Notes: a model not told the origin generated them from the letters alone. A stretch of DNA of 64,000 nt from a virus (IMGVR_UViG_3300045988_137643:1-64000), one strand, 5' to 3'; numbered from the stretch's first letter, positions 9,596 to 46,190 are shown. Translations and numbers: made by a program.

Positions 9596-9874
9596 TTATG
9601 GCAGTTTGCTTAGAATTTGTTCTAGGTCTTCCTTTGTCATATTAGAGTTTTCATAGATGCGCATGATTTTCTCACGAGCCTTAGCAGAGACTCCAACGGC
9701 AGAGGAAACTTTATCAAACTCAGCCATCGTCATCGCCTCTAGGATGGTATTGATAACTTCAGCCTTAGACATTTTGATGTTTTTTTCTTTTAGTTTCATT
9801 TGAAACTTTCCAAGTTTGTCATTGGCCTTATCAGACAATGCCACCTGACAATAAGTTGTTTTCTTTTCGCTCAT
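9596..9874 (-). CDS. small hypothetical protein, possibly DNA-binding
   Basis: ORF track, 92 aa, Lys-rich; immediately downstream of the helicase gene on the same strand. Confidence 0.45.
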   Translation of the reverse strand: MSEKKTTYCQVALSDKANDKLGKFQMKLKEKNIKMSKAEVINTILEAMTMAEFDKVSSAVGVSAKAREKIMRIYENSNMTKEDLEQILSKLP

Positions 9875-9876
9875 AA

Positions 9877-11436
9877 CTAATCTCGTTTCAGAACTCCAAA
9901 ATCGAATGCGCCATCAATAGGCAATACACCTTCTGCAAAGCCAGGTGTGGTGTCGATGATGTGTTTTCGCTCATAAGAGTGAGACAACAGATATTTGTTG
10001 CTAATGTCAATAAAATCAGTGATAAAACATACGTTTGCCTGATTCTTCTTGGCTCGTAAGCCACGACCGACACGCTGCCTCATTTCAACTTCTGCTTTCC
10101 CACCACCAGCAAGAATGACCGCACCAACGCTTGGCACATCAACACCGACATCCAGAATAGTCGAGCCTATTAAAACATCTATTTCTCCAGACGCTAAACT
10201 GTTCAGCTTTGCTTGCCTTGTCGCCTGGTTAGATTCCCCATAGATGAAGTCAACTCTAAGGCCGGACTCTTTCATCATTTCCATCAGGATTTGCCCGTGG
10301 CGTTTAAGGCGAACCAGAGTCATACAATTGAGAGAATGTTGCTTATAGAGCAATGCTTCGCGAACAATGGCCTCGTTACGTCCCAAATTATACACGATCC
10401 CCAACTGATAAGCCTTTTGGTAGGCAGTACTCATACCTACTCTAAAATTGAGGTGTTTGTTGGCAAGTTCTGCCTTGATTCTGGCCTCGTCTGGTTTGTA
10501 GGCAACTTTATGATAAAGGAAGTACGGCTTTGCCAGAATGCCTCGATCAATCAGGTACTTTTCTGTGACTTTAATTTCAATTCGCCCGGCCACCGCCATC
10601 AGGCGCATGTTGGCTTCCGTCGAATCCTTCATGAACGGCGTGGCTGTAAGCGCCAGACGATAGTCTGCGTTCACACATAATCTGGCGATGTCATAGAAAT
10701 TTGAGCCTGAAGACTCATGCGCCTCTTCCAGAATAAGAAGAGAGACACTTGAAAGGAAGCGTTTCACCAACTCCCGACGTTTGAGGTGGTAGCTTTTCTT
10801 ATCTGGTGTTGCATCGCGTGGTGGTTCTTCGAGGAAACTTGCAAGAGTTTGAACTGTAGCGACGTTGATATGTCGTGATACCTGGAACTCACCCGAGCCA
10901 ATGACTCCAACCTTTTGGTCTTTTAACCACGGTTCGCCATTTTCGGCGCGGTAGTCGATGGATCTCTGGAAGTTATCGGCCATCTGAAACATCAGAACAG
11001 ATCGGGTTGTTAAAAATAATGTCATTCGACCGATACGTGCAGCTGCTTTGCAGGCAACGTTAGATTTCCCGCCACCAGTAGCGATCTGCGCAATCATCAT
11101 TCCCTCGCGAACTAGTGTTTCCACAGCCTGATCCTGATACGCATAATCAGGATTGTATGGGAATGGGTTAACCGCCGGATTTGGCTTTCCAAGCGCCGGG
11201 ACTTTGTCTTTGCGGATATGAACACATTTGATGCCCGCCTTGTTCAAGTTCGCCACTACAGGCTTGGCAAAGCCAGCAGGGAACGAGTTTTTACTCCAGT
11301 TGAACATCGTGCTTGTGCCCTTCCAGTCGCCAGTCTCGACTTCGTAGCTCAACATTTGCTGCACCAGTTGCTTTACCTTGTCATCTGCGCCAGAAATAAG
11401 CGCATTAACTGCGTTAGATACAATCCGAACAGTCAT
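9877..11436 (-). CDS. superfamily-2 helicase (DEAH-type)
   Basis: motif I TGGGKS, motif II LILEEAHE, motif III TATP, motif VI QRVGRGLR; GAGG RBS. Confidence 0.75.
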   Translation of the reverse strand: MTVRIVSNAVNALISGADDKVKQLVQQMLSYEVETGDWKGTSTMFNWSKNSFPAGFAKPVVANLNKAGIKCVHIRKDKVPALGKPNPAVNPFPYNPDYAYQDQAVETLVREGMMIAQIATGGGKSNVACKAAARIGRMTLFLTTRSVLMFQMADNFQRSIDYRAENGEPWLKDQKVGVIGSGEFQVSRHINVATVQTLASFLEEPPRDATPDKKSYHLKRRELVKRFLSSVSLLILEEAHESSGSNFYDIARLCVNADYRLALTATPFMKDSTEANMRLMAVAGRIEIKVTEKYLIDRGILAKPYFLYHKVAYKPDEARIKAELANKHLNFRVGMSTAYQKAYQLGIVYNLGRNEAIVREALLYKQHSLNCMTLVRLKRHGQILMEMMKESGLRVDFIYGESNQATRQAKLNSLASGEIDVLIGSTILDVGVDVPSVGAVILAGGGKAEVEMRQRVGRGLRAKKNQANVCFITDFIDISNKYLLSHSYERKHIIDTTPGFAEGVLPIDGAFDFGVLKRD

Positions 11437-11482
11437 AAACCTCTTTCCTTAGTGCCTTTTGTATGTTATTTGGCTATTATAA

Positions 11483-11500
11483 TAAGTAAGTAGTTACTTA
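11483..11500. promoter_or_regulatory. family B palindrome TAAGTAA-GTAG-TTACTTA in divergent helicase/ParB-like intergenic region
   Basis: 7-bp arms, 4-bp spacer. Confidence 0.55.
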
Positions 11501-11518
11501 GTGGATTGTAGCAATAAA

Positions 11519-12199
11519 ATGGATGTAAAAATCACGATTTTGCAGGTTGATGTTGCCAACCTTCGCCCGAATACCTGGAACACCAATTCGGTTGGTGCGC
11601 AGAATTTTGAAAAACTGAAAGGTTCTATCGAAAAATTGGGCTTTTTTAAGCCAATTTTGGCTCGTGAACTTGAAGATGGATGTTTTGAAATCCTCGGCGG
11701 CGAACATCGCTGGCGTGCTGCTATTGAGCAAGGAATTTCAACGGTTCCGGTGCTTTCTGTGGGCAAAATTAGCGATGTCGTGGCTAAACAGATGTCACTG
11801 GTGGACAACGAGCGATACGGTGAAGACGACCAAATCGCATTGCAACGCTTCATTGAAGAAATTCAGTCAGAACTTGACTATCAACTGTCTGAAATCGCCC
11901 CGTATGACGACGAAATCTCGATGGTTTTAGCAAAAGAGGCGGCAATCGACCTTGAAGCACTGGAGGCGTTGTCTCGTGGTAGTGATGAGCCTGTCGATAC
12001 CGACAAACGAGAGAAAACCGAACGTGTGGGTGCGGAACATCAGACCATGCGCTTCAAAGTAACTTTCGATGCGTCAGATCGTGTTGCAGAAACCATAAAA
12101 AACATCATCAAAGAGCAGGCTATTAACACCGGTAATGAAATGGAGAACGCTGGTGAGGCTCTGGTGTGGCTGGTCGACTACTACAAGGAGCGTATGTAA
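11519..12199 (+). CDS. ParB N-terminal-domain (ParB/Srx fold) protein
   Basis: ParB box GGEHRWRAA; start moved to ATG 11519; palindrome 11483-11500 upstream. Confidence 0.7.
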   Translation: MDVKITILQVDVANLRPNTWNTNSVGAQNFEKLKGSIEKLGFFKPILARELEDGCFEILGGEHRWRAAIEQGISTVPVLSVGKISDVVAKQMSLVDNERYGEDDQIALQRFIEEIQSELDYQLSEIAPYDDEISMVLAKEAAIDLEALEALSRGSDEPVDTDKREKTERVGAEHQTMRFKVTFDASDRVAETIKNIIKEQAINTGNEMENAGEALVWLVDYYKERM

Positions 12200-12867
12200 T
12201 GACCAAAAAGTTTGAAATCGTATATCGCGACCCGGCAGATCTTATTCCCTATGAGATGAATGCCAAAAAGCATGATGAACAGCAGATCCGAGATCTGGCC
12301 GCAGCCATTAAAAAGCGCGGGTTTGACCAGCCAATTACGGTCGATAAGAACGACGTAATTATTACTGGCCACGGCCGCCGTGAGGCTGCAATTTTTGCTG
12401 GACTTGAGCGCGTACCGGTTATTGTTCGCGATGATCTCAGTGATGACGAGGTTCGTGCGAAGCGCCTTGAAGATAACCGACTTGCCAGCATTGATTACGA
12501 TGCAATTAAGCTACAGAAAGAGCTTGAGTCGCTTGTTCTGGACGATATCGAGGTTTTCGGCTTTGAAGAGCGTGAGTTGAATGTTCTCGTTGGCAGCATG
12601 ACAGAAGAAATGGACACCGACTCGCTAGTTATCGATCTTGGCGAAGAAACTAAACGACAGAAGGATGAACACACCGAGATCAGTCGTGAAGTTGCAGCGG
12701 AAGAAGTACGTGTTGTCGACGTATTGGGCTTTAAAACGCTCCCTGCTGGCTCTGCCATTGTTGTTGGTGATTTGCTTGCCCACATGGAAGAAATGACGGG
12801 AGAAAGCGGGGTAGACGCATTTGTGGCATATGCGGAGAAGATCTCTTCCGGGGAGATGGCTGCATGA
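12199..12867 (+). CDS. second ParB N-terminal-domain protein
   Basis: motif ITGHGRREAA; start ATG 12199 overlaps the previous stop (TAATG) with AAGGAG RBS. Confidence 0.7.
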   Translation: MTKKFEIVYRDPADLIPYEMNAKKHDEQQIRDLAAAIKKRGFDQPITVDKNDVIITGHGRREAAIFAGLERVPVIVRDDLSDDEVRAKRLEDNRLASIDYDAIKLQKELESLVLDDIEVFGFEERELNVLVGSMTEEMDTDSLVIDLGEETKRQKDEHTEISREVAAEEVRVVDVLGFKTLPAGSAIVVGDLLAHMEEMTGESGVDAFVAYAEKISSGEMAA

Positions 12868-13529
12868 GCAAATACATCATCAACGTATCGTTTCAGACAC
12901 GCGTAAATAAAACCACGCGCACGTTGGAAATCGCTGAGTCGTTCGGGCTTGGCCTGGACGAAAAAGAGTGGACGCTTTACGACAATCTGGAGCTGGAAGT
13001 GAAGCAGGGCGATGTGGTGTACATCACCGGCCAATCCGGTTCCGGCAAATCCGTTGTGCTGCGCGAGTTGCAACGACAGATGAAGGATGAAGGGCTGTCT
13101 GTAGCCTCCATCGATGATTTTACCTTCGATAATGAGGTTAACGTCATCGATCAGTTGGGCAAAACGACCAGTGATGCGCTTGGGTTGTTATCTATGGCTG
13201 GTCTGAACGATGCATATCTGTTTGTTCGCAAGCCTTCTGAAATGTCAGACGGCCAGAAATATCGTCTCAAGATTGCCAAACTGATTGAGTCAGGCGCTAA
13301 AGTGTGGGCTGCTGACGAGTTCGGCGCTGTTCTCGACCGTGTAACCGCTCAGGTTGTGGCGTCTAACCTCCAGCGTGCCGCTCGAAAGGTTGGTGCGACG
13401 GTAATGGTGGCGACGACTCACGAAGACCTGAAGAACGCGCTGCGCCCGGATATGCAGATCACCAAGCACTACAAAGAACGCGTGAAGGTGGAATATCACA
13501 ATGGTAGTCACGATGAGGTCCATTCATGA
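12864..13529 (+). CDS. P-loop NTPase
   Basis: Walker A GQSGSGKS, Walker B-like VWAADEFG; ATGA start/stop overlap with upstream gene. Confidence 0.65.
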   Translation: MSKYIINVSFQTRVNKTTRTLEIAESFGLGLDEKEWTLYDNLELEVKQGDVVYITGQSGSGKSVVLRELQRQMKDEGLSVASIDDFTFDNEVNVIDQLGKTTSDALGLLSMAGLNDAYLFVRKPSEMSDGQKYRLKIAKLIESGAKVWAADEFGAVLDRVTAQVVASNLQRAARKVGATVMVATTHEDLKNALRPDMQITKHYKERVKVEYHNGSHDEVHS

Positions 13530-14416
13530 CGGACATCATCATTAAACGCTACCGCCCTGAAGAGTTTCCGCGTCATCTGGACTTTCTGGAGCGAATGACT
13601 GTTACAAAGGGAACTGTAGAGGACTGGCACGCTCTTAAGTCGCTTCACTACAAAACAGACGGCAAACCTTTCGCGCCAACTTACTATCGCTGCGAACTTG
13701 ATGACCGTCTGGTGGGCGTCGTGGTTATGGCTTACCCGAAACTACTGTTGGCACCTCGCCACCGCATGTTTCCTAAGTTGAAACCAACCACTAATACCAC
13801 CGTGGCTAACCAGTACTGGGGTCGGTACGTGAATAACAACTTTGCGGTGATCAGTCGCTCAGTTGTGGATACTCAGTATCGTGGCGTAGGCGTCTCTTAT
13901 CGAATGATTAACCTGGTTAGCAGGATGCATGACCGGCCAATCATTGAGATCCAGTCCTCGATGAGCAAATACAATCCCTTCGCCATGAAAGCAGGGTTTA
14001 AGTTCATCCGCCCTGAGCGACCGAAGAGCTATGAAAGTGCACTGCGTGTATTCCAGCGCCATTTCCGTTCCGACCCGGGTGATAACGAGGCGATCGTCAA
14101 AGAGTTGTTCGCAATGAGCGAGTCTCGTCGTCGCCGTGCACTGCGTGATCTGGTGGCGGACTACCACAAGAACAGTTCCCTGGCAAAAGCTGGGCGGAAT
14201 CGTGGCACGACGATTCAGGACATTGCCGACAGTCTGGTGGACGAGGCCAGCATTGTGAAGCTGCTCAAGGACATTCACAACCTGAGCTTTACGTCTCCGT
14301 TATATGGTGTGTATCGAAACCCTGACTTTGGTCGTCGACTGCCTGACACGCTGCCACTGCTGGCATTCGACAAACAACCTTTGGATAAACCGTTGGAAAT
14401 TGCTTTACCGGCATAA
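13526..14416 (+). CDS. GNAT-fold acetyltransferase-like protein
   Basis: QYRGVGVS (Q/RxxGxG/A motif A) and NPFAMKAGFKFI motif-B-like segment; ATGA overlap with upstream ATPase gene. Confidence 0.5.
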   Translation: MTDIIIKRYRPEEFPRHLDFLERMTVTKGTVEDWHALKSLHYKTDGKPFAPTYYRCELDDRLVGVVVMAYPKLLLAPRHRMFPKLKPTTNTTVANQYWGRYVNNNFAVISRSVVDTQYRGVGVSYRMINLVSRMHDRPIIEIQSSMSKYNPFAMKAGFKFIRPERPKSYESALRVFQRHFRSDPGDNEAIVKELFAMSESRRRRALRDLVADYHKNSSLAKAGRNRGTTIQDIADSLVDEASIVKLLKDIHNLSFTSPLYGVYRNPDFGRRLPDTLPLLAFDKQPLDKPLEIALPA

Positions 14417-14425
14417 GGATTTGCC

Positions 14426-14692
14426 ATGACGTTAACCGATAAACAAAAGGACATCATCAAAACGCTCAATCTCGGTTATGAGCGAGGTCATCTACTTGAT
14501 CTGGACGAATTGCTTGAAGTTTTGCCGTACAAGACAACAAAGCAAAGTATCCAGTTCTCAATTCGCGCTCTGATAAAAAAGGGGCTGGTGGAGAAAGGGC
14601 ATACGCGCCAACGCAGTGACAATCGCTATCACCGCAGGACTCTTGGGTTAACCACTTTAGGTCGAGCCAAAGCGAAGTTACTGGTGATGTAA
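14426..14692 (+). CDS. small basic protein, possible winged-helix DNA binder
   Basis: ORF track, 88 aa; AAGGA RBS; followed by large palindrome 14717-14771. Confidence 0.45.
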   Translation: MTLTDKQKDIIKTLNLGYERGHLLDLDELLEVLPYKTTKQSIQFSIRALIKKGLVEKGHTRQRSDNRYHRRTLGLTTLGRAKAKLLVM

Positions 14693-14716
14693 TCGGTCTG
14701 GGAGCTTATTTAAAGA

Positions 14717-14771
14717 CCTGCTTCTGTATATATAAATAATAAGTAACTTATTAAATATATACGGAAGCAGG
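14717..14771. repeat. large (~55 bp) palindromic hairpin element with 17-bp perfect core TAATAAGTAACTTATTA; copy 1
   Basis: outer stem CCTGCTTCTGTATATAT/ATATATACGGAAGCAGG around the core; near-identical copy at 46136-46190. Confidence 0.75.
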
Positions 14772-14834
14772 CTTAGTAAGACATGCCAGACCTAATTAAA
14801 CACCCCAGAAAACAAGTTGGTTAGCAGATGCAGT

Positions 14835-14847
14835 AAACAAGTTGTTT
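14835..14847. promoter_or_regulatory. family A palindrome AAACAA-G-TTGTTT upstream of terS
   Basis: perfect 6+1+6 inverted repeat; weaker copy at 14808-14822. Confidence 0.55.
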
Positions 14848-14887
14848 TAGAGCGCATGGACGCGCTCTGTGTGTTTTAGAGGGATCT

Positions 14888-15520
14888 ATGACGGTCGAAA
14901 AAGACGAGGTAAAAACTCGCCTGACACCAGCGGAGTGGGCCGAAGCTGAAGCCAAATGGACGTCAGGCGAATATACACTCTCAAAGCTGGAGGAAGAGTA
15001 CGGCATTCGTCGTGAAACACTCTCCAGACATTTCAAAAAGCGAGGATTAGAGAAAGGCGCGGACTCTGTTGGGAAGATGGTTCGTGAGTCTCTTAAATCT
15101 GACGCAGAGCTTCGCGCTAAAGCCCGTGCGGAAAAGATAGAAGAACGTCGTACACGTTATGACGGCTGGGCGTATGCGTTGGGGCAGATGGTGATGGTCG
15201 AAGTCACTACGGCCAAACGTGATGGTAAGCCTTTAGGGGCGATTGAGGATTCTCTCAAGAGCTTACAGAGAGCCAGTAATACCCTTGCAAAATGCTTTGA
15301 AGTTTCGTCCAAAGCATTGGGCATGGATCATGCGGAAAATGACGAGGAAGAAATTCCGAACCTGGTATTTGGTGAGCTTACGCCTTCCCAGGTGGCGAAA
15401 TTACGTCAGGAAGACGACGAGCCTGAAATCATCGATGACGAATTGCTTGAGACGTTGGAAGAAGAAGCTCTAAGCGAATTTGATGCGACAGATGATGGAA
15501 GTGAAGGGGAGGACGAATAA
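14888..15520 (+). CDS. terS: terminase small subunit (putative)
   Basis: position immediately upstream of the large terminase with ATGA-type overlap; HTH-like N-terminus and highly acidic C-terminus. Confidence 0.6.
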   Translation: MTVEKDEVKTRLTPAEWAEAEAKWTSGEYTLSKLEEEYGIRRETLSRHFKKRGLEKGADSVGKMVRESLKSDAELRAKARAEKIEERRTRYDGWAYALGQMVMVEVTTAKRDGKPLGAIEDSLKSLQRASNTLAKCFEVSSKALGMDHAENDEEEIPNLVFGELTPSQVAKLRQEDDEPEIIDDELLETLEEEALSEFDATDDGSEGEDE

Positions 15521-16776
15521 TGGCAATCCCATCCTCGCTCAGTCTTGTGCAACTGCATTCTGGACAGATGAAAGTCTTCCAGTCTCCGCATCGATTTAAA
15601 GTTGTTTGTGCTGGTCGACGCTGGGGAAAATCCCGGTTGTCGATCTCCACTATTATTCGTGCGGCGGCAAAGGAAAAAAAGCAAAGGGTCTGGTATGTCG
15701 CTCCTACTTACCAGATGGCTCGCCAGATTTTGTGGGACGATCTACAGGAAGTTCTGCCTCGTAAGTGGGTTAGGAAAAAGAACGACACCACGATGACAAT
15801 CGTGTTGAAGAACGGTTCGGAGATCGCCCTCAAAGGTGCTGATAAGCCTGACACTCTGCGCGGCGTAGCGTTGCATTTTGTAGTGCTTGATGAATTTCAG
15901 GATATGAAGGCTGACACCTGGTACAAGGTGTTACGACCTACTCTTTCATCGACACGCGGCGGTGCACTGATCATTGGTACGCCAAAAGGCTTCTCGGAAT
16001 TTCACAAACTGTGGACTATAGGCCAGAACGTAGAGCTGCAAAGAAAGGGACAGTGGAAGAGCTGGCAGTTTGTAACTGCTGATTCTCCGTTTGTGCCTAC
16101 GGCGGAAATTGAAGCTGCTAAGAACGATATGGACCCTAAATCGTTCGCTCAGGAGTACCTGGCCAGCTTTGAAAATATGTCCGGGCGCGTTTACTACCCG
16201 TTCGATCGTAACGTGCATGTAAAACCGCTTCAGTTCAACCCTCGGTTGCCTATATGGGTAGGGCAGGACTTCAACATTGACCCGATGTCTTCCGTAATTT
16301 TGCAACCTCAGCCAAACGGTGAGCTATGGGCAATTGATGAACTGGTACTCTTTTCCTCTAACACGGCAGAGGTTTGTGATGAGCTTGAGAGACGCTTCTG
16401 GCGCTGGAAATCACAGATAACGGTATTTCCAGATCCGGCAGGTGCTTATCGCCAACATGCTCGCGGGGAGTCTGACGTCGACATATTCAAAGAGAAGGGA
16501 TTCTTACGTGTCGATTATTCGAAAAAGCACCCGCCAATTGCGGATCGTGTTAATGCTGTTAACCGAATGCTGATGACCGCATCTGGAGATATCCGGTTGT
16601 ATATCGATCCGAAGTGCAAGCATTTGATTGATTCACTGGAAAAAGTCATCTACAAGCCTGGAACACGAGATATGGATAAGACAGGTGGCATTGAGCATAG
16701 TGCAGACGCATTGGGCTATCCAGTACATCGTAGGTATCCAGTCAAAAACCGTGTTATTCTTGGTGGCTCTCGATAG
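15520..16776 (+). CDS. terL: terminase large subunit
   Basis: N-terminal ATPase with deviant Walker A CAGRRWGKS and VVLDEFQD Walker B; followed by portal gene. Confidence 0.85.
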   Translation: MAIPSSLSLVQLHSGQMKVFQSPHRFKVVCAGRRWGKSRLSISTIIRAAAKEKKQRVWYVAPTYQMARQILWDDLQEVLPRKWVRKKNDTTMTIVLKNGSEIALKGADKPDTLRGVALHFVVLDEFQDMKADTWYKVLRPTLSSTRGGALIIGTPKGFSEFHKLWTIGQNVELQRKGQWKSWQFVTADSPFVPTAEIEAAKNDMDPKSFAQEYLASFENMSGRVYYPFDRNVHVKPLQFNPRLPIWVGQDFNIDPMSSVILQPQPNGELWAIDELVLFSSNTAEVCDELERRFWRWKSQITVFPDPAGAYRQHARGESDVDIFKEKGFLRVDYSKKHPPIADRVNAVNRMLMTASGDIRLYIDPKCKHLIDSLEKVIYKPGTRDMDKTGGIEHSADALGYPVHRRYPVKNRVILGGSR

Positions 16777-45077: not shown

Positions 45078-45746
45078 ATGACCAAGATCTTTGTGGTTGG
45101 CGGCACAAAGGGCGGGCCTGGCAAATCCACCGTTGCCCAGCAAATTGCCGTTTGCCTGAAAGTCAAAAAGAAGAAGAAGGTTTATATCACCGATATAGAT
45201 ATTCAGCGCACGACAACGAGCTGGTGTGAAGACCGTCGACAGAACGAAGACCTTGAGCTGATTCCTTTTGCATACGTTCAGGATGACATCATTAAGCACC
45301 TAAAATCGCTTCAGGGTAGAGCTGAGTATGTAGTGGTAGATGCTGGTGGCTTCGACTCCGAAATTCAGCGACAAGCGATGCTGATGGCTGACGTTATCAT
45401 TATCCCGCTGCGTCCTAAGCGTCGTGATTTGAAATCTTTACGTGACATCGATCCTATTATCGACAATGTTCGCAATGTAAACGATAAAGTGAAGGTCCGC
45501 GCGGTCATGAACCAGTGCCCGGCTTTGCCATCACAAGTGTCTCGCATTCTGGCGGCTAAAGAGATTGTCGAGACGTTTGGCATCGAGTCTGCGCCTGTCA
45601 ATCTATATAACCGCAACGTCTACGATGATGCGGAAGAGTCTGGTCGTTCTATCTTTGAAATGACCGGTAGCGAGCGCGACAAAAAGGCGGAAGCCGAGTT
45701 TGAAGAATTTGTAGATTATCTGTTGAGTCTGGAGGAAGAAGAATAA
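45078..45746 (+). CDS. parA: ParA/MinD-family partition ATPase
   Basis: deviant Walker A GGTKGGPGKST; 222 aa without N-terminal HTH (type Ib-like); operator palindrome upstream. Confidence 0.85.
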   Translation: MTKIFVVGGTKGGPGKSTVAQQIAVCLKVKKKKKVYITDIDIQRTTTSWCEDRRQNEDLELIPFAYVQDDIIKHLKSLQGRAEYVVVDAGGFDSEIQRQAMLMADVIIIPLRPKRRDLKSLRDIDPIIDNVRNVNDKVKVRAVMNQCPALPSQVSRILAAKEIVETFGIESAPVNLYNRNVYDDAEESGRSIFEMTGSERDKKAEAEFEEFVDYLLSLEEEE

Positions 45747-46105: not shown

Positions 46106-46135
46106 CAACTTCCGGTCTGGCAGCTTCAATCAGAA

Positions 46136-46190
46136 CCTGTTTCTGTATTTAAATAATAAGTAACTTATTAAATATATATACGGAAGCAGG
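46136..46190. repeat. large palindromic hairpin element, copy 2, immediately downstream of partition operon
   Basis: same 17-bp core at 46154-46170 with flanking stem CCTGTTTCTGTA.../...TACGGAAGCAGG. Confidence 0.75.

Follow-up and report, generated by a model that had tools for sequence, protein, structure and literature searches.

The closest described systems pair a ParB-fold protein with an enzyme that modifies DNA. In the 5mYOX176/ParB176 pair, ParB176 comprises an NBD and a CTD, has no DNA-binding domain and activates the adjacent thymine dioxygenase (5mYOX176) on dsDNA; mutants in its NTP site stayed active, and 5mYOX/ParB clusters often co-occur with terminase genes (PMC13229309). DpdB, a homodimeric ParB-fold ATPase with an alpha-helical C-domain, is indispensable for base exchange by DpdA (PMC10164549), and a bacterial ParB-acetyltransferase fusion binds GTP (PMC12704722). 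In the ParB-DNA methyltransferase fusions of prophages (phrog_498; PADLOC MTase_II PDLC03229), a SAM methyltransferase serves as the effector and is joined to the ParB domain in cis. In a further system, TmcA/NAT10, acylation of a nucleobase amine of RNA (ac4C) by a GNAT domain is driven by an NTPase domain.

We focus here on how these systems compare with a four-gene block at the head of the packaging/late genes of an E. coli SSU5-like phage-plasmid, which makes up the window (the whole stretch of 64,000 nucleotides that was analysed). The block and its surroundings are laid out as follows.

11437-11518, no strand: divergent intergenic region between a UvsW-like helicase gene (minus) and the ParB1 gene (plus), holding the ATAAGTAAGTAGTTACTTAG palindrome
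11482-11501, no strand: ATAAGTAAGTAGTTACTTAG, operator/promoter-like palindrome
11519-12199, plus: ParB1, with a ParB/Srx-fold NTP-binding N-domain, an acidic linker and a conserved C-terminus; pI 4.55
12199-12867, plus: ParB2, with a DNA-methylase-associated ParB/Srx-fold N-domain and a coiled-coil/helical C-terminal region; pI 4.53
12864-13529, plus: ABC-type ATPase, the N-half of the ABC-GNAT fusion family, catalytic motifs all intact
13526-14416, plus: GNAT-fold acyl-CoA acyltransferase-like protein, the C-half of the ABC-GNAT fusion family; pI 9.8
14426-14692, plus: 88-aa basic winged-helix-like protein (wHTH; phrog_900), putative DNA-binding; pI 10.2
14694-14772, no strand: element of about 80 bp with a 55-bp AT-centred palindrome (14717-14771), candidate cos/pac or protein-binding site
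14810-14819 and 14835-14844, plus: direct repeats AAACAAGTTG, conserved in SSU5, candidate TerS-binding repeats
14848-14879, plus: GC-rich hairpin with a T-run, terminator-like, 18 bp before the terS ATG, conserved in SSU5
14888-15520, plus: TerS-like gene (phrog_867)
15520-16776, plus: TerL (Terminase_6N)
46113-46190, no strand: second copy of the palindrome element, directly after the ParA pair

The four open reading frames lie on the plus strand where the initial annotation had placed them, the overlaps that it gave between them (TAATG, ATGA and ATGA) can be read directly from the sequence, and an AAGGAG ribosome-binding site lies 5' of the second gene, that of ParB2. All the motifs that it had listed (GGEHRWRAA, GHGRREAA, GQSGSGKS, AADEFG, QYRGVG and NPFAMKAGFKF) occur in the translations, and its calls of two ParB-like proteins, an ATPase and a GNAT protein were right. 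Its 'small Walker A/B NTPase' does have the Walker motifs, but the term is too narrow for what is a complete ABC-type ATPase. The small basic protein and the 55-bp palindrome follow the GNAT gene as described. The block had also been called fused onto the packaging operon; it does precede terS/terL, but not as a simple fusion, for a cos/pac-like spacer of 195 bp, containing the palindrome, the two AAACAAGTTG repeats and the terminator-like hairpin, separates it from terS. The repeats may serve as TerS-binding sites.

ParB1 and ParB2 both belong to the ParB/Srx (ParB-CTPase fold) superfamily, have its three-dimensional fold and are predicted from their sequences to bind NTP. They score 50.4 bits (2.3e-13) and 35.2 bits, respectively, against Pfam ParB_N (PF02195), whose gathering cut-off is 26.3 bits. 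ParB1, of PHROG family phrog_723, carries canonical-like GGxHR and DNxRYGxDD boxes, and its best PDB matches in a sequence search are Spo0J, ParB and Noc. Among 64 relatives, N18, W20, N21, N23, G60, G61, H63, R64, D96, N97 and R99 are invariant, and the catalytic Glu of the 'GxER' box varies across the lineage. ParB2 has NxKxH, GHGR and RxxxN boxes (N21, K23, H25, G57, H58, G59, R60, R89 and N93 being invariant) and matches the ParB domains of methyltransferases; KorB is one of the top structural matches to its model, and PadC and ParB are top structural neighbours of both ParB2 and DpdB. Neither protein shows an HTH or RHH domain in Pfam or in a PDB sequence search, and beyond its N-domain the ParB2 model has only helical/coiled-coil structure, with no DNA-binding domain. 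Both are acidic, whereas the GNAT protein is basic. Canonical ParABS/KorB clamps share with ParB1 an N-domain with GxxR and Asn boxes; the block, on the other hand, lacks an HTH/parS-binding domain and a ParA-interaction motif, and ParA is not encoded beside it. It had been considered that the two proteins might prove to be ordinary small-terminase or DNA-methylase-associated domains. ParB2 is indeed of the latter type, which informs the mechanism and does not trivialise the finding, but the ParB proteins match no terminase family. We thus reject them as small terminases, a separate TerS-like gene being present.

The ABC ATPase matches Pfam ABC_tran at 50.1 bits (cut-off 25; 5.8e-13). Its motif set is complete, with a GQSGSGKS Walker A, an SDGQ signature, an AADEF Walker B with DE, an LD D-loop and an H-loop at H186, and these motifs are invariant in 74 relatives. 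The database annotation as an ABC transporter is rejected, since more than 300 neighbourhoods hold no transmembrane permease partner; the partner is a GNAT domain, fused or adjacent. The GNAT protein has the GNAT fold, into which a basic helical segment is inserted around residues 165-255, and no Pfam GNAT model exceeds its gathering score (the best is Acetyltransf_10, E=0.037, 14.4 bits vs 23.6). Its QYRGVG, in which R119 and G122 are invariant, fits the acyl-CoA pyrophosphate-binding motif Q/R-x-x-G-x-G/A, and the RG-x-G form of this motif is kept in the fused and short-type families. Compared with fused representatives, the ABC protein matches the N-halves mostly at 1e-40 to 1e-63 and the GNAT protein the C-halves mostly at 1e-12 to 1e-24; the two genes correspond to the halves of fusion proteins of 450-500 aa, with the order kept and the motifs shared in alignment. 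They are two halves of one protein family, ABC-GNAT, here split. No member of the fusion family is solved or characterised. Its homologues, and CYRAN_122 of Cyrano, carry the label 'ABC-type ATPase fused to predicted acetyltransferase domain' (COG2401-type), to which no function, structure or study is attached and for which a literature search found no paper; as against the labelled fusion, there are two genes here, and the GNAT protein has a helical insertion. All the NTP-, ATP- and CoA-binding motifs of the block are conserved, and acyl transfer is predicted.

The block is real and no local oddity. It belongs to the core of the SSU5-like lineage and is syntenic throughout it; the four genes keep strict synteny down to about 40% identity, far beyond chance, and the order HEL, ParB1-ParB2-ABC-GNAT-wHTH-TerS-TerL-portal recurs in about 80 diverse loci. 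Many members of the lineage keep the 88-aa wHTH gene, whose product has weak Sta1/Lrs14 matches, behind the GNAT gene; many others lack it, as do the other phage groups. The core of ParB2 and ABC-GNAT is common in unrelated phages. A ParB gene of the ParB2 type lies immediately 5' of ABC-GNAT in 61 of 69 unrelated short-type viral contigs, usually followed by terS/terL of differing families; it is also found there in phages of Gordonia, Streptococcus, Lactococcus, Oenococcus, Leptospira, Pasteurella and Arthrobacter, with homology to ParB2 at up to 9.5e-26. Furthermore, P0198, P0218, P0221 and P0226 are ParB2-like-Zn-ribbon-ABC-GNAT fusions (hhalign probability 97.6%, E=4.6e-12). Since such fusions exist and synteny holds across unrelated phages, the parts belong together. 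Among 77 short-type contigs, at least 34 have TerL downstream; among 80 ParB-less contigs, at least 30 have it directly upstream. These TerLs are mutually non-homologous. ParB1 is an extra ParB paralogue and a lineage-specific second switch subunit. A formyltransferase (PF00551, Fmt/PurN family) and an ASCH (PUA-like) domain are recurrent neighbours; the hosts include archaea, Gram-positive and Gram-negative bacteria and spirochaetes, and both integrative and strictly lytic phages have the module. What the SSU5 lineage carries is its own form of a phage module that is widespread but uncharacterised, with split genes and an extra ParB paralogue.

How, then, does this module relate to known DNA-modifying systems? 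The S. pyogenes prophages Javan460 and 315.4 have TerLs that are 100% identical, but they differ in what lies just upstream of the terminase: one has ParB_N+N6_N4_Mtase there, the other a stand-alone ParB gene and then ABC-GNAT. The ParB domain of the fusion and that of the stand-alone protein share 90% identity. ParB-DNA methyltransferase fusions thus share with the block both the ParB2-type N-domain and the slot upstream of terS/terL, whereas the block has an ABC ATPase and an acyl-CoA-type GNAT as separate genes, and a second ParB paralogue. The 5mYOX176/ParB176 pair likewise has a ParB-fold protein without a DNA-binding domain encoded beside an enzyme, and 5mYOX has ParB-dependent and ParB-independent subclasses, as do the ABC-GNAT loci; its enzyme, however, belongs to the Fe/2OG dioxygenases and is accompanied by neither an ABC ATPase nor a GNAT protein, and the need for ParB, established there, is putative for the block. 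DpdB resembles ParB2 in combining a ParB fold with a helical C-domain and in being the partner of an enzyme, but DpdA is a TGT-like transglycosylase and the system serves bacterial restriction-modification, not a phage late module. In each case, as in the block, a ParB-fold protein without a DNA-binding domain is encoded with or fused to an enzyme. TmcA/NAT10 follows the same logic of NTPase plus GNAT, with a helicase-type ATPase instead of an ABC one and RNA as the substrate, and no homology between it and the module was detected. DNA modification of the Mom type can be set aside on grounds of homology: a profile search of PDB sequences gave no similarity between the GNAT protein and Mom of phage Mu (PDB 8bv8), an enzyme of GNAT fold that modifies DNA adenine, the likeness being one of generic fold, and Mom has no ABC ATPase or ParB partner, the formyltransferase partner occurring only with ABC-GNAT. 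PADLOC gives generic ATPase and methyltransferase-ParB-domain matches, and none for the GNAT protein. The view that the block cannot be assigned to a known system therefore stands, as neither PADLOC nor NCBIfam nor PDB yields a relative other than by generic fold, and literature searches aimed at the four-gene module found no paper on it.

Expression data come from Cyrano, a 99%-identical element whose RNA-seq covers the lysogenic state only: the block (CYRAN_119-122) is at 5.0-9.5 against a background of 9.8, terS/terL are at 7-8, and the ParA/MinD-like CYRAN_99 is at 92 (PMC9928086). In the plasmid-prophage state, then, neither the block nor the terminase genes are expressed above background, and from the position of the block we infer late timing.

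It is highly probable that the four genes form one lytic-cycle, packaging-linked enzyme complex. Most likely, the module modifies phage DNA, or something bound to DNA, before packaging, and here we concur with the initial annotation, which had guessed at an action on DNA around packaging. That the target of the complex is DNA itself has, in our judgement, slightly less than an even chance; it is the methyltransferase swap, together with analogy, that leads us to infer that the enzyme may modify DNA. Our best reading, to which we give the same odds, is a lytic-cycle complex whose ParB switches bring an ATP-driven acyltransferase onto phage DNA, or turn it on there, ahead of packaging; the substrate is putative. 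The core would consist of ParB2, a ParB/Srx-fold NTP switch without a DNA-binding domain, and the ABC-ATPase-GNAT acyltransferase, with the 88-aa wHTH protein as a possible DNA-targeting factor. During lytic growth, the ParB proteins would dimerise upon nucleotide binding, and the dimers would keep the ATP-dimerised ABC-GNAT enzyme on phage DNA that has been replicated, or switch it on there. Using acyl-CoA as donor, the GNAT domain would then acylate an amine of a DNA base, or a DNA-associated amine substrate, as packaging is about to begin or is under way. How the switch works is uncertain because the ParB1 Glu is variable and NTP-site mutants of ParB176 were active (PMC13229309). If this proposal is true, the module is the acyl counterpart of ParB-methyltransferase, ParB-5mYOX and DpdB-DpdA. 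Several points speak against DNA as the target. First, the tight terminase linkage, on either side, could mean a direct role in packaging. Second, the formyltransferase and ASCH neighbours fit RNA/tRNA or another amine equally well. Third, the ABC domain resembles, in sequence, the nucleotide-binding domains of transporters and ABC-F proteins and not the DNA-acting SMC/Rad50/UvrA types. No DNA modification is documented for SSU5-like phages.

Terminase linkage would also suit a packaging accessory: a complex at concatemeric DNA or the terminase that acetylates TerS, TerL, portal, HU-like nucleoid proteins or co-packaged polyamines. We regard such a role as unlikely, and an acetylation that would license or clear DNA for translocation as equally so. 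In BcepMu-like phages the ABC-GNAT gene follows those for the tail fibre, and the region displayed contains no terminase gene; one lineage has it beside PolB; the terminase does not need ABC-GNAT, because TerL is identical despite the methyltransferase swap; and a universal protein target is hard to name across archaeal, Gram-positive, Gram-negative and spirochaete viruses.

The recurrent formyltransferase and ASCH neighbours would suit an RNA/tRNA acyltransferase, TmcA/NAT10-like or acting on aminoacyl-tRNA, that tunes or protects late translation, and TmcA/NAT10 is a precedent for ATPase plus GNAT on RNA. ABC-F proteins are among the sequence matches, a similarity that is generic, and ParB folds are known fused to PUA-like and RNA-methyltransferase-like domains (PMC12704722). 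This reading is nevertheless improbable, in that the ParB2-type domain is 90% identical to that of a DNA N6/N4-methyltransferase fusion, the two experimentally characterised ParB-fold partners considered here, DpdB (PMC10164549) and ParB176 (PMC13229309), act on DNA-modifying enzymes, and the position beside the terminase has no rationale.

Regulation of the KorB/KorA kind, in which ParB clamps and the 88-aa wHTH protein would bind palindromes and control late/packaging genes, seems to us more improbable still. Candidate sites would be the 20-bp ATAAGTAAGT.ACTTACTTAT and/or the 55-bp element. The operator-like 20-bp motif has 12 copies in the window, where 0.9 would be expected, lies 5' of ParB1 and upstream of many other plus-strand genes and operons, and is conserved in distant relatives; the 55-bp palindrome lies directly 3' of the wHTH gene, KorB is among the top structural matches to ParB2, and KorB-KorA offers a precedent (cited in PMC13229309). 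Such control, however, leaves the covalent ParB-ABC-GNAT fusion and the conserved ABC/GNAT catalytic motifs unexplained, the ParBs are without any DNA-binding domain, and the wHTH protein is missing from many lineage members and other phage groups.

A role in defence or anti-defence, also raised in the initial annotation, is supported by no specific evidence. AcrVA5, a GNAT anti-CRISPR, inactivates Cas12a by acylation and is a precedent for an effector that acylates a host defence protein or signalling molecule, possibly packaged with the DNA; orphan phage ParB fusions have been suggested for anti-defence or phage-host interaction (PMC12704722). We consider this very improbable: unlike fast-turnover anti-defence genes, the module is core and strictly syntenic to about 40% identity, it occurs in viruses of archaea and distant bacterial phyla, PADLOC gives no specific match, and a late-operon position is ill-suited to early counter-defence.

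Finally, a second plasmid-partition/incompatibility system, which two ParB-fold proteins and a palindrome copy beside the ParA pair might suggest, is effectively refuted, as the initial annotation had anticipated, by the lack of an HTH in the ParBs, by neighbours that are a helicase (minus strand) and an ABC ATPase with ParA 33 kb away, by background-level expression in the plasmid state of the 99%-identical element, by the occurrence of the same module in integrative and strictly lytic phages and by the fusion of ParB to an enzyme. The separate ParA is confirmed at 45078-45746; the 'RHH' label of its 119-aa partner is tentative because there is no Pfam match behind it. The 55-bp palindrome folds as DNA at -17.9 kcal/mol (z=-6.7), and the database records of SSU5 and Cyrano are linearised inside the palindrome element of about 80 bp.

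The four-gene block of the window belongs to a module that is common in phages, mis-annotated and uncharacterised, and is not peculiar to this stretch. The identity of the block region to the E. coli SSU5-like phage-plasmids Cyrano (OV696614) and CMS-2020a is 98–99%, and to Salmonella phage SSU5 it is 85%; of the 792 plasmid records that match, 719 contain at least 80% of its 3.3 kb. Database labels for the four genes are 'ParB protein', 'ParB-like nuclease', 'ABC transporter' and 'ABC-type ATPase fused to a predicted acetyltransferase'. The four ORFs, their TAATG, ATGA and ATGA overlaps and every motif quoted in the initial annotation were all found in the sequence or its translations, and the first two proteins, ParB1 (11519–12199, + strand) and ParB2 (12199–12867, +), both score above the Pfam ParB_N threshold. 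The third (12864–13529, +), described earlier as a small Walker A/B NTPase, is indeed an NTPase, but more fully it carries a complete ABC motif set, invariant across 74 relatives, and scores above threshold for Pfam ABC_tran. The fourth (13526–14416, +) is a basic GNAT protein, in which the order of secondary-structure elements points to a basic helical insertion at residues ~165–255, between the last two GNAT strands.

A GNAT profile search gave 887 representative relatives, and outside the SSU5 lineage most of these are 450–500-aa fusions with an N-terminal ABC and a C-terminal GNAT half. Matches between the window's ABC protein and the N-halves of most fusions reach 1e-40 to 1e-63, and its match to any transporter is far poorer; the alignment contains idiosyncratic motifs common to the members of this ABC-GNAT family. 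ABC and GNAT are thus two halves of one protein. A short type of 366–400 aa has more than 600 matches in IMG/VR. A scan of genome contigs was dominated by generic ABC patterns and recovered only six true loci. Solved structures in the PDB cover only generic ABC nucleotide-binding domains and none matched the GNAT half, and literature searches on the ParB-ABC-GNAT module and the ABC-GNAT family found no study of either. The initial annotation had refrained from assigning the block to any known system, and this caution was justified; PADLOC and NCBIfam searches for a known defence or anti-defence system yielded generic matches only.

Several lines of evidence link ParB to ABC-GNAT. First of all, four representatives of 666–699 aa are fusions of a ParB2-like domain, a Zn ribbon, ABC and GNAT, in which the ParB call rests on profile-profile comparison (probability 97.6%, E=4.6e-12, 125 columns), Pfam ParB_N being weak there (E=0.01). 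Second, of the 69 contigs with room for it, 61 (88%) have a ParB gene immediately before the short-type ABC-GNAT and in the same orientation, and at least 34 of 77 contigs have a TerL 0.3–1.6 kb downstream of it. The order ParB, ABC-GNAT, small gene(s), TerL is annotated in Gordonia, Streptococcus, Lactococcus, Leptospira and Pasteurella phages, and Oenococcus and Arthrobacter phages likewise carry ParB followed by ABC-GNAT. Third, the partner ParBs of those phages are homologous to ParB2 (up to 9.5e-26) and their TerLs are mutually unrelated. Some other genomes have the ParB gene placed after the ABC-GNAT fusion. There is also a ParB-less subclass in Thaumarchaeota-type viral contigs, with TerL directly upstream and a ParB within 7 kb in 0 of 80. 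In many of the comparison loci L171–L250, no further gene follows ABC-GNAT before the contig ends, and TerL immediately precedes it; this terminal position suggests a genome terminus beside the gene in that lineage. Judged from fusion and neighbourhood, ParB and ABC-GNAT belong to the same machine, with ParB2 as the universal partner and ParB1 specific to the SSU5 lineage.

The most telling comparison comes from two S. pyogenes prophages, Javan460 and 315.4, whose TerL proteins are 100% identical. Upstream of the terminase, Javan460 encodes a single protein with ParB_N and an N6_N4 DNA methylase; 315.4 encodes a stand-alone ParB, 90% identical to the Javan460 ParB domain over 135 residues, followed by ABC-GNAT and then an ASCH-domain gene. 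In one slot of one backbone, the same ParB domain is thus paired now with a DNA methyltransferase, now with ABC-GNAT, and serves the one or the other. A search with the ParB2 N-domain returned 295 phage records, many annotated as DNA methylase. The ASCH gene of 315.4 (L167:5972–6349), which is PUA-like and weakly DUF3850-like, separates ABC-GNAT from the terminase genes; the reported fusion partners of phage ParB folds include PUA-like DUF3850.

ParB1 and ParB2 are both acidic (pI 4.5) and both devoid of an HTH, and their nucleotide-pocket residues are invariant in both paralogues across the lineage, ParB1 being the more canonical and closest to Spo0J/Noc. Protein-family searches gave no support for a small-terminase or HNH-like nuclease role of the two ParBs. 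The architecture, an NBD with a helical CTD and no DNA-binding domain, is that of two proteins known from experiment to be partners of DNA-modifying enzymes: ParB176, which is needed by a phage thymine dioxygenase acting on dsDNA (PMC13229309), and DpdB, an ATPase that DpdA base exchange requires (PMC10164549). A survey of ParB folds describes phage fusions to methyltransferases, as well as a ParB-acetyltransferase fusion that binds GTP (PMC12704722).

The order helicase (− strand), ParB1, ParB2, ABC, (variable inserts), GNAT, (wHTH), TerS, TerL, portal is kept wherever the contig is long enough among 80 diverse viral contigs, a set obtained by a scan seeded with distant sequences, the initial seed having given near-identical relatives only. 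GNAT in this set is 41–82% identical to the distant seed and ~42–50% to the window, and Ectothiorhodospira and a 3.3-Mb metagenome contig share this gene order; the block belongs to the core genes of a large lineage. Lineage-specific inserts occupy the ABC/GNAT gap, such as an 84-aa ORF in SSU5 (SSU5_128, L002:6013–6267) and Phage_gp49_66 and RyR-domain genes in the Ectothiorhodospira relative (L003:6961–7999).

RNA-seq of the Cyrano lysogen (strain LF82; PMC9928086 S1 Table) gives 5.0, 9.5, 9.2 and 8.0 for CYRAN_119–122, against an element background median of 9.8, and 7.1, 8.4 and 9.8 for terS, terL and portal. A ParA/MinD-like gene reaches 92, the divergent UvsW-like helicase (window 9877–11436, − strand) 46 and the 92-aa ORF beside it (CYRAN_117; window 9596–9874, −) 114. 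The block is thus switched off while the element persists as a plasmid-prophage, as are the morphogenesis genes. Lambdoid and Gram-positive phages have the module placed after late activator or lysis genes, and we infer that the block is expressed late in the lytic cycle.

Between the GNAT gene and terS, the small basic protein (14426–14692, +) is confirmed as an 88-aa, basic, winged-helix-like product, and the 55-bp palindrome is genuine. The block had been described as fused onto the packaging operon; adjacency stands, but a 195-bp spacer with a palindrome element, repeats and a hairpin precedes terS (14888–15520, +), and the junction is thus not a simple fusion.

Elements of the junction and the second copy of one of them
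14694–14772: ~80-bp element with the 55-bp palindrome (14717–14771), in the spacer
spacer: two AAACAAGTTG repeats
14848–14879: conserved GC hairpin with T-run, terminator-like, 18 bp before the terS start
46113–46190: second copy of the ~80-bp element, directly after the ParA/119-aa pair

Of the ParA/RHH pair reported earlier, ParA is present at 45078, but the RHH nature of its partner was not confirmed. The hairpin suggests that the packaging genes are controlled by attenuation or antitermination. In GenBank/ENA, SSU5 and Cyrano are both linearised inside the palindrome (window 14744–14754; L002 end, L165 start; L001 end), and these two database linearisation points suggest candidate cos-type packaged-genome ends there; no experimental statement of the termini was found. 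For the twice-present element, a dispersed centromere, a terminator and a cos-like site are all conceivable. A known RNA in the spacer is rejected, Rfam yielding nothing there beyond sub-threshold chance hairpin matches. Furthermore, a 20-bp palindromic motif, ATAAGTAAGT.ACTTACTTAT, has 12 copies in the window (at most one mismatch to ATAAGTAAGTA) versus 0.9 expected.

Copies of the 20-bp motif
11482, 16773, 18280, 30264, 37176, 42059, 46276, 50587, 53251 (− strand), 60883

Copies on the + strand lie ~20–80 bp before + strand gene starts, including ParB1, portal, a DUF6651 gene and tail protein L, and TAAGTAAGTA-type palindromes are 6–7-fold enriched upstream of TerS and ParB1 in relatives at only 40–50% protein identity. 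The motif is probably a promoter or operator used throughout the lineage.

The components make up a single conserved unit, in which the NTP-, ATP- and CoA-binding sites are intact. The unit is encoded with packaging genes and a ParB-methyltransferase can take its place, and we are largely confident that its components constitute one lytic, packaging-linked enzyme complex. That DNA is its target we hold more tentatively, at a little under an even chance. The ParB proteins would hold or activate an ATP-dimerised ABC-GNAT on replicated phage DNA, a ParB1/ParB2 heterodimer being a possible form of the ParB switch in the SSU5-type lineage, and the GNAT domain would acylate a DNA base amine before packaging. 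The basic GNAT protein is consistent with this mechanism, as is the GNAT fold of Mom. BcepMu-like phages carry ABC-GNAT at the end of the late operon, the place of mom on the Mu genome map, which is likewise consistent with DNA acylation. On the other hand, the ABC domain is of transporter/ABC-F rather than SMC/UvrA type, which is among the points that do not fit a DNA target. An RNA/tRNA or other amine substrate would suit as well, and the ASCH and formyltransferase neighbours of ABC-GNAT fit it equally. The latter, a PurN-size enzyme (PF00551), is encoded downstream of ABC-GNAT, with translational coupling, in three unrelated lineages, namely Gordonia, BcepMu-like and Porphyromonas phages, and is mis-annotated as 'tRNA-methyltransferase' in Gordonia phage Shatter.

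Formyltransferase copies in comparison loci
L166:1805–2452
L252:5011–5625
L253:4999–5472
L255:5023–5640

A direct role in packaging is kept alive by the tight linkage to the terminase genes. An ABC transporter is rejected, as there is no permease and the ATPase is fused to GNAT, and so is a partition system, the block being without ParA, without HTH and silent in the plasmid state. A further-reaching proposal for a DNA target, which we consider rather unlikely as a whole, is a new class of phage hypermodification, in which a nucleotide-gated ParB clamp loads an ATP-driven GNAT that N-acylates bases on replicated concatemers right before packaging, a coupled formyltransferase adding N-formylation in some lineages, the result being an anti-restriction mark interchangeable with ParB-methyltransferases. 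We place the module with the ParB-associated systems of nucleic-acid modification; none of the relatives of its ABC-GNAT effector has been characterised.

Phages have many orphan ParB-fold proteins, whose binding of various NTPs and activation of a DNA-modifying enzyme were shown only in 2025–2026. The locus ties the fold to a second enzyme family, ABC ATPase-GNAT, so far uncharacterised, which databases mislabel, across hundreds of plasmids and phages, as 'ABC transporter' and 'partition protein'; triple fusions, 88% ParB adjacency, terminase linkage in unrelated phages and the clean methyltransferase swap between prophage backbones that are otherwise identical turn a vague annotation into testable questions. 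If DNA is the target, phages would have a new DNA modification, with possible effects on restriction evasion, on sequencing artefacts and on the host range of SSU5-like phage-plasmids, a group in which resistance genes such as CTX-M-15 have been reported. If the packaging machinery is the target, the module would be a new terminase accessory. Hypermodification, if true, would be the second GNAT-based DNA modification after Mom and would give the ABC-GNAT ('COG2401-type') family its first function, reaching archaeal viruses. Individual family members have features of their own: P0163 carries an intein with a LAGLIDADG endonuclease inside its ABC domain, P0179 and P0207 (and L208:3354–6998) sit immediately behind a family-B DNA polymerase or are called as a fusion with it, and the archaeal member P0154 has a TFIIB repeat at its C-terminus.
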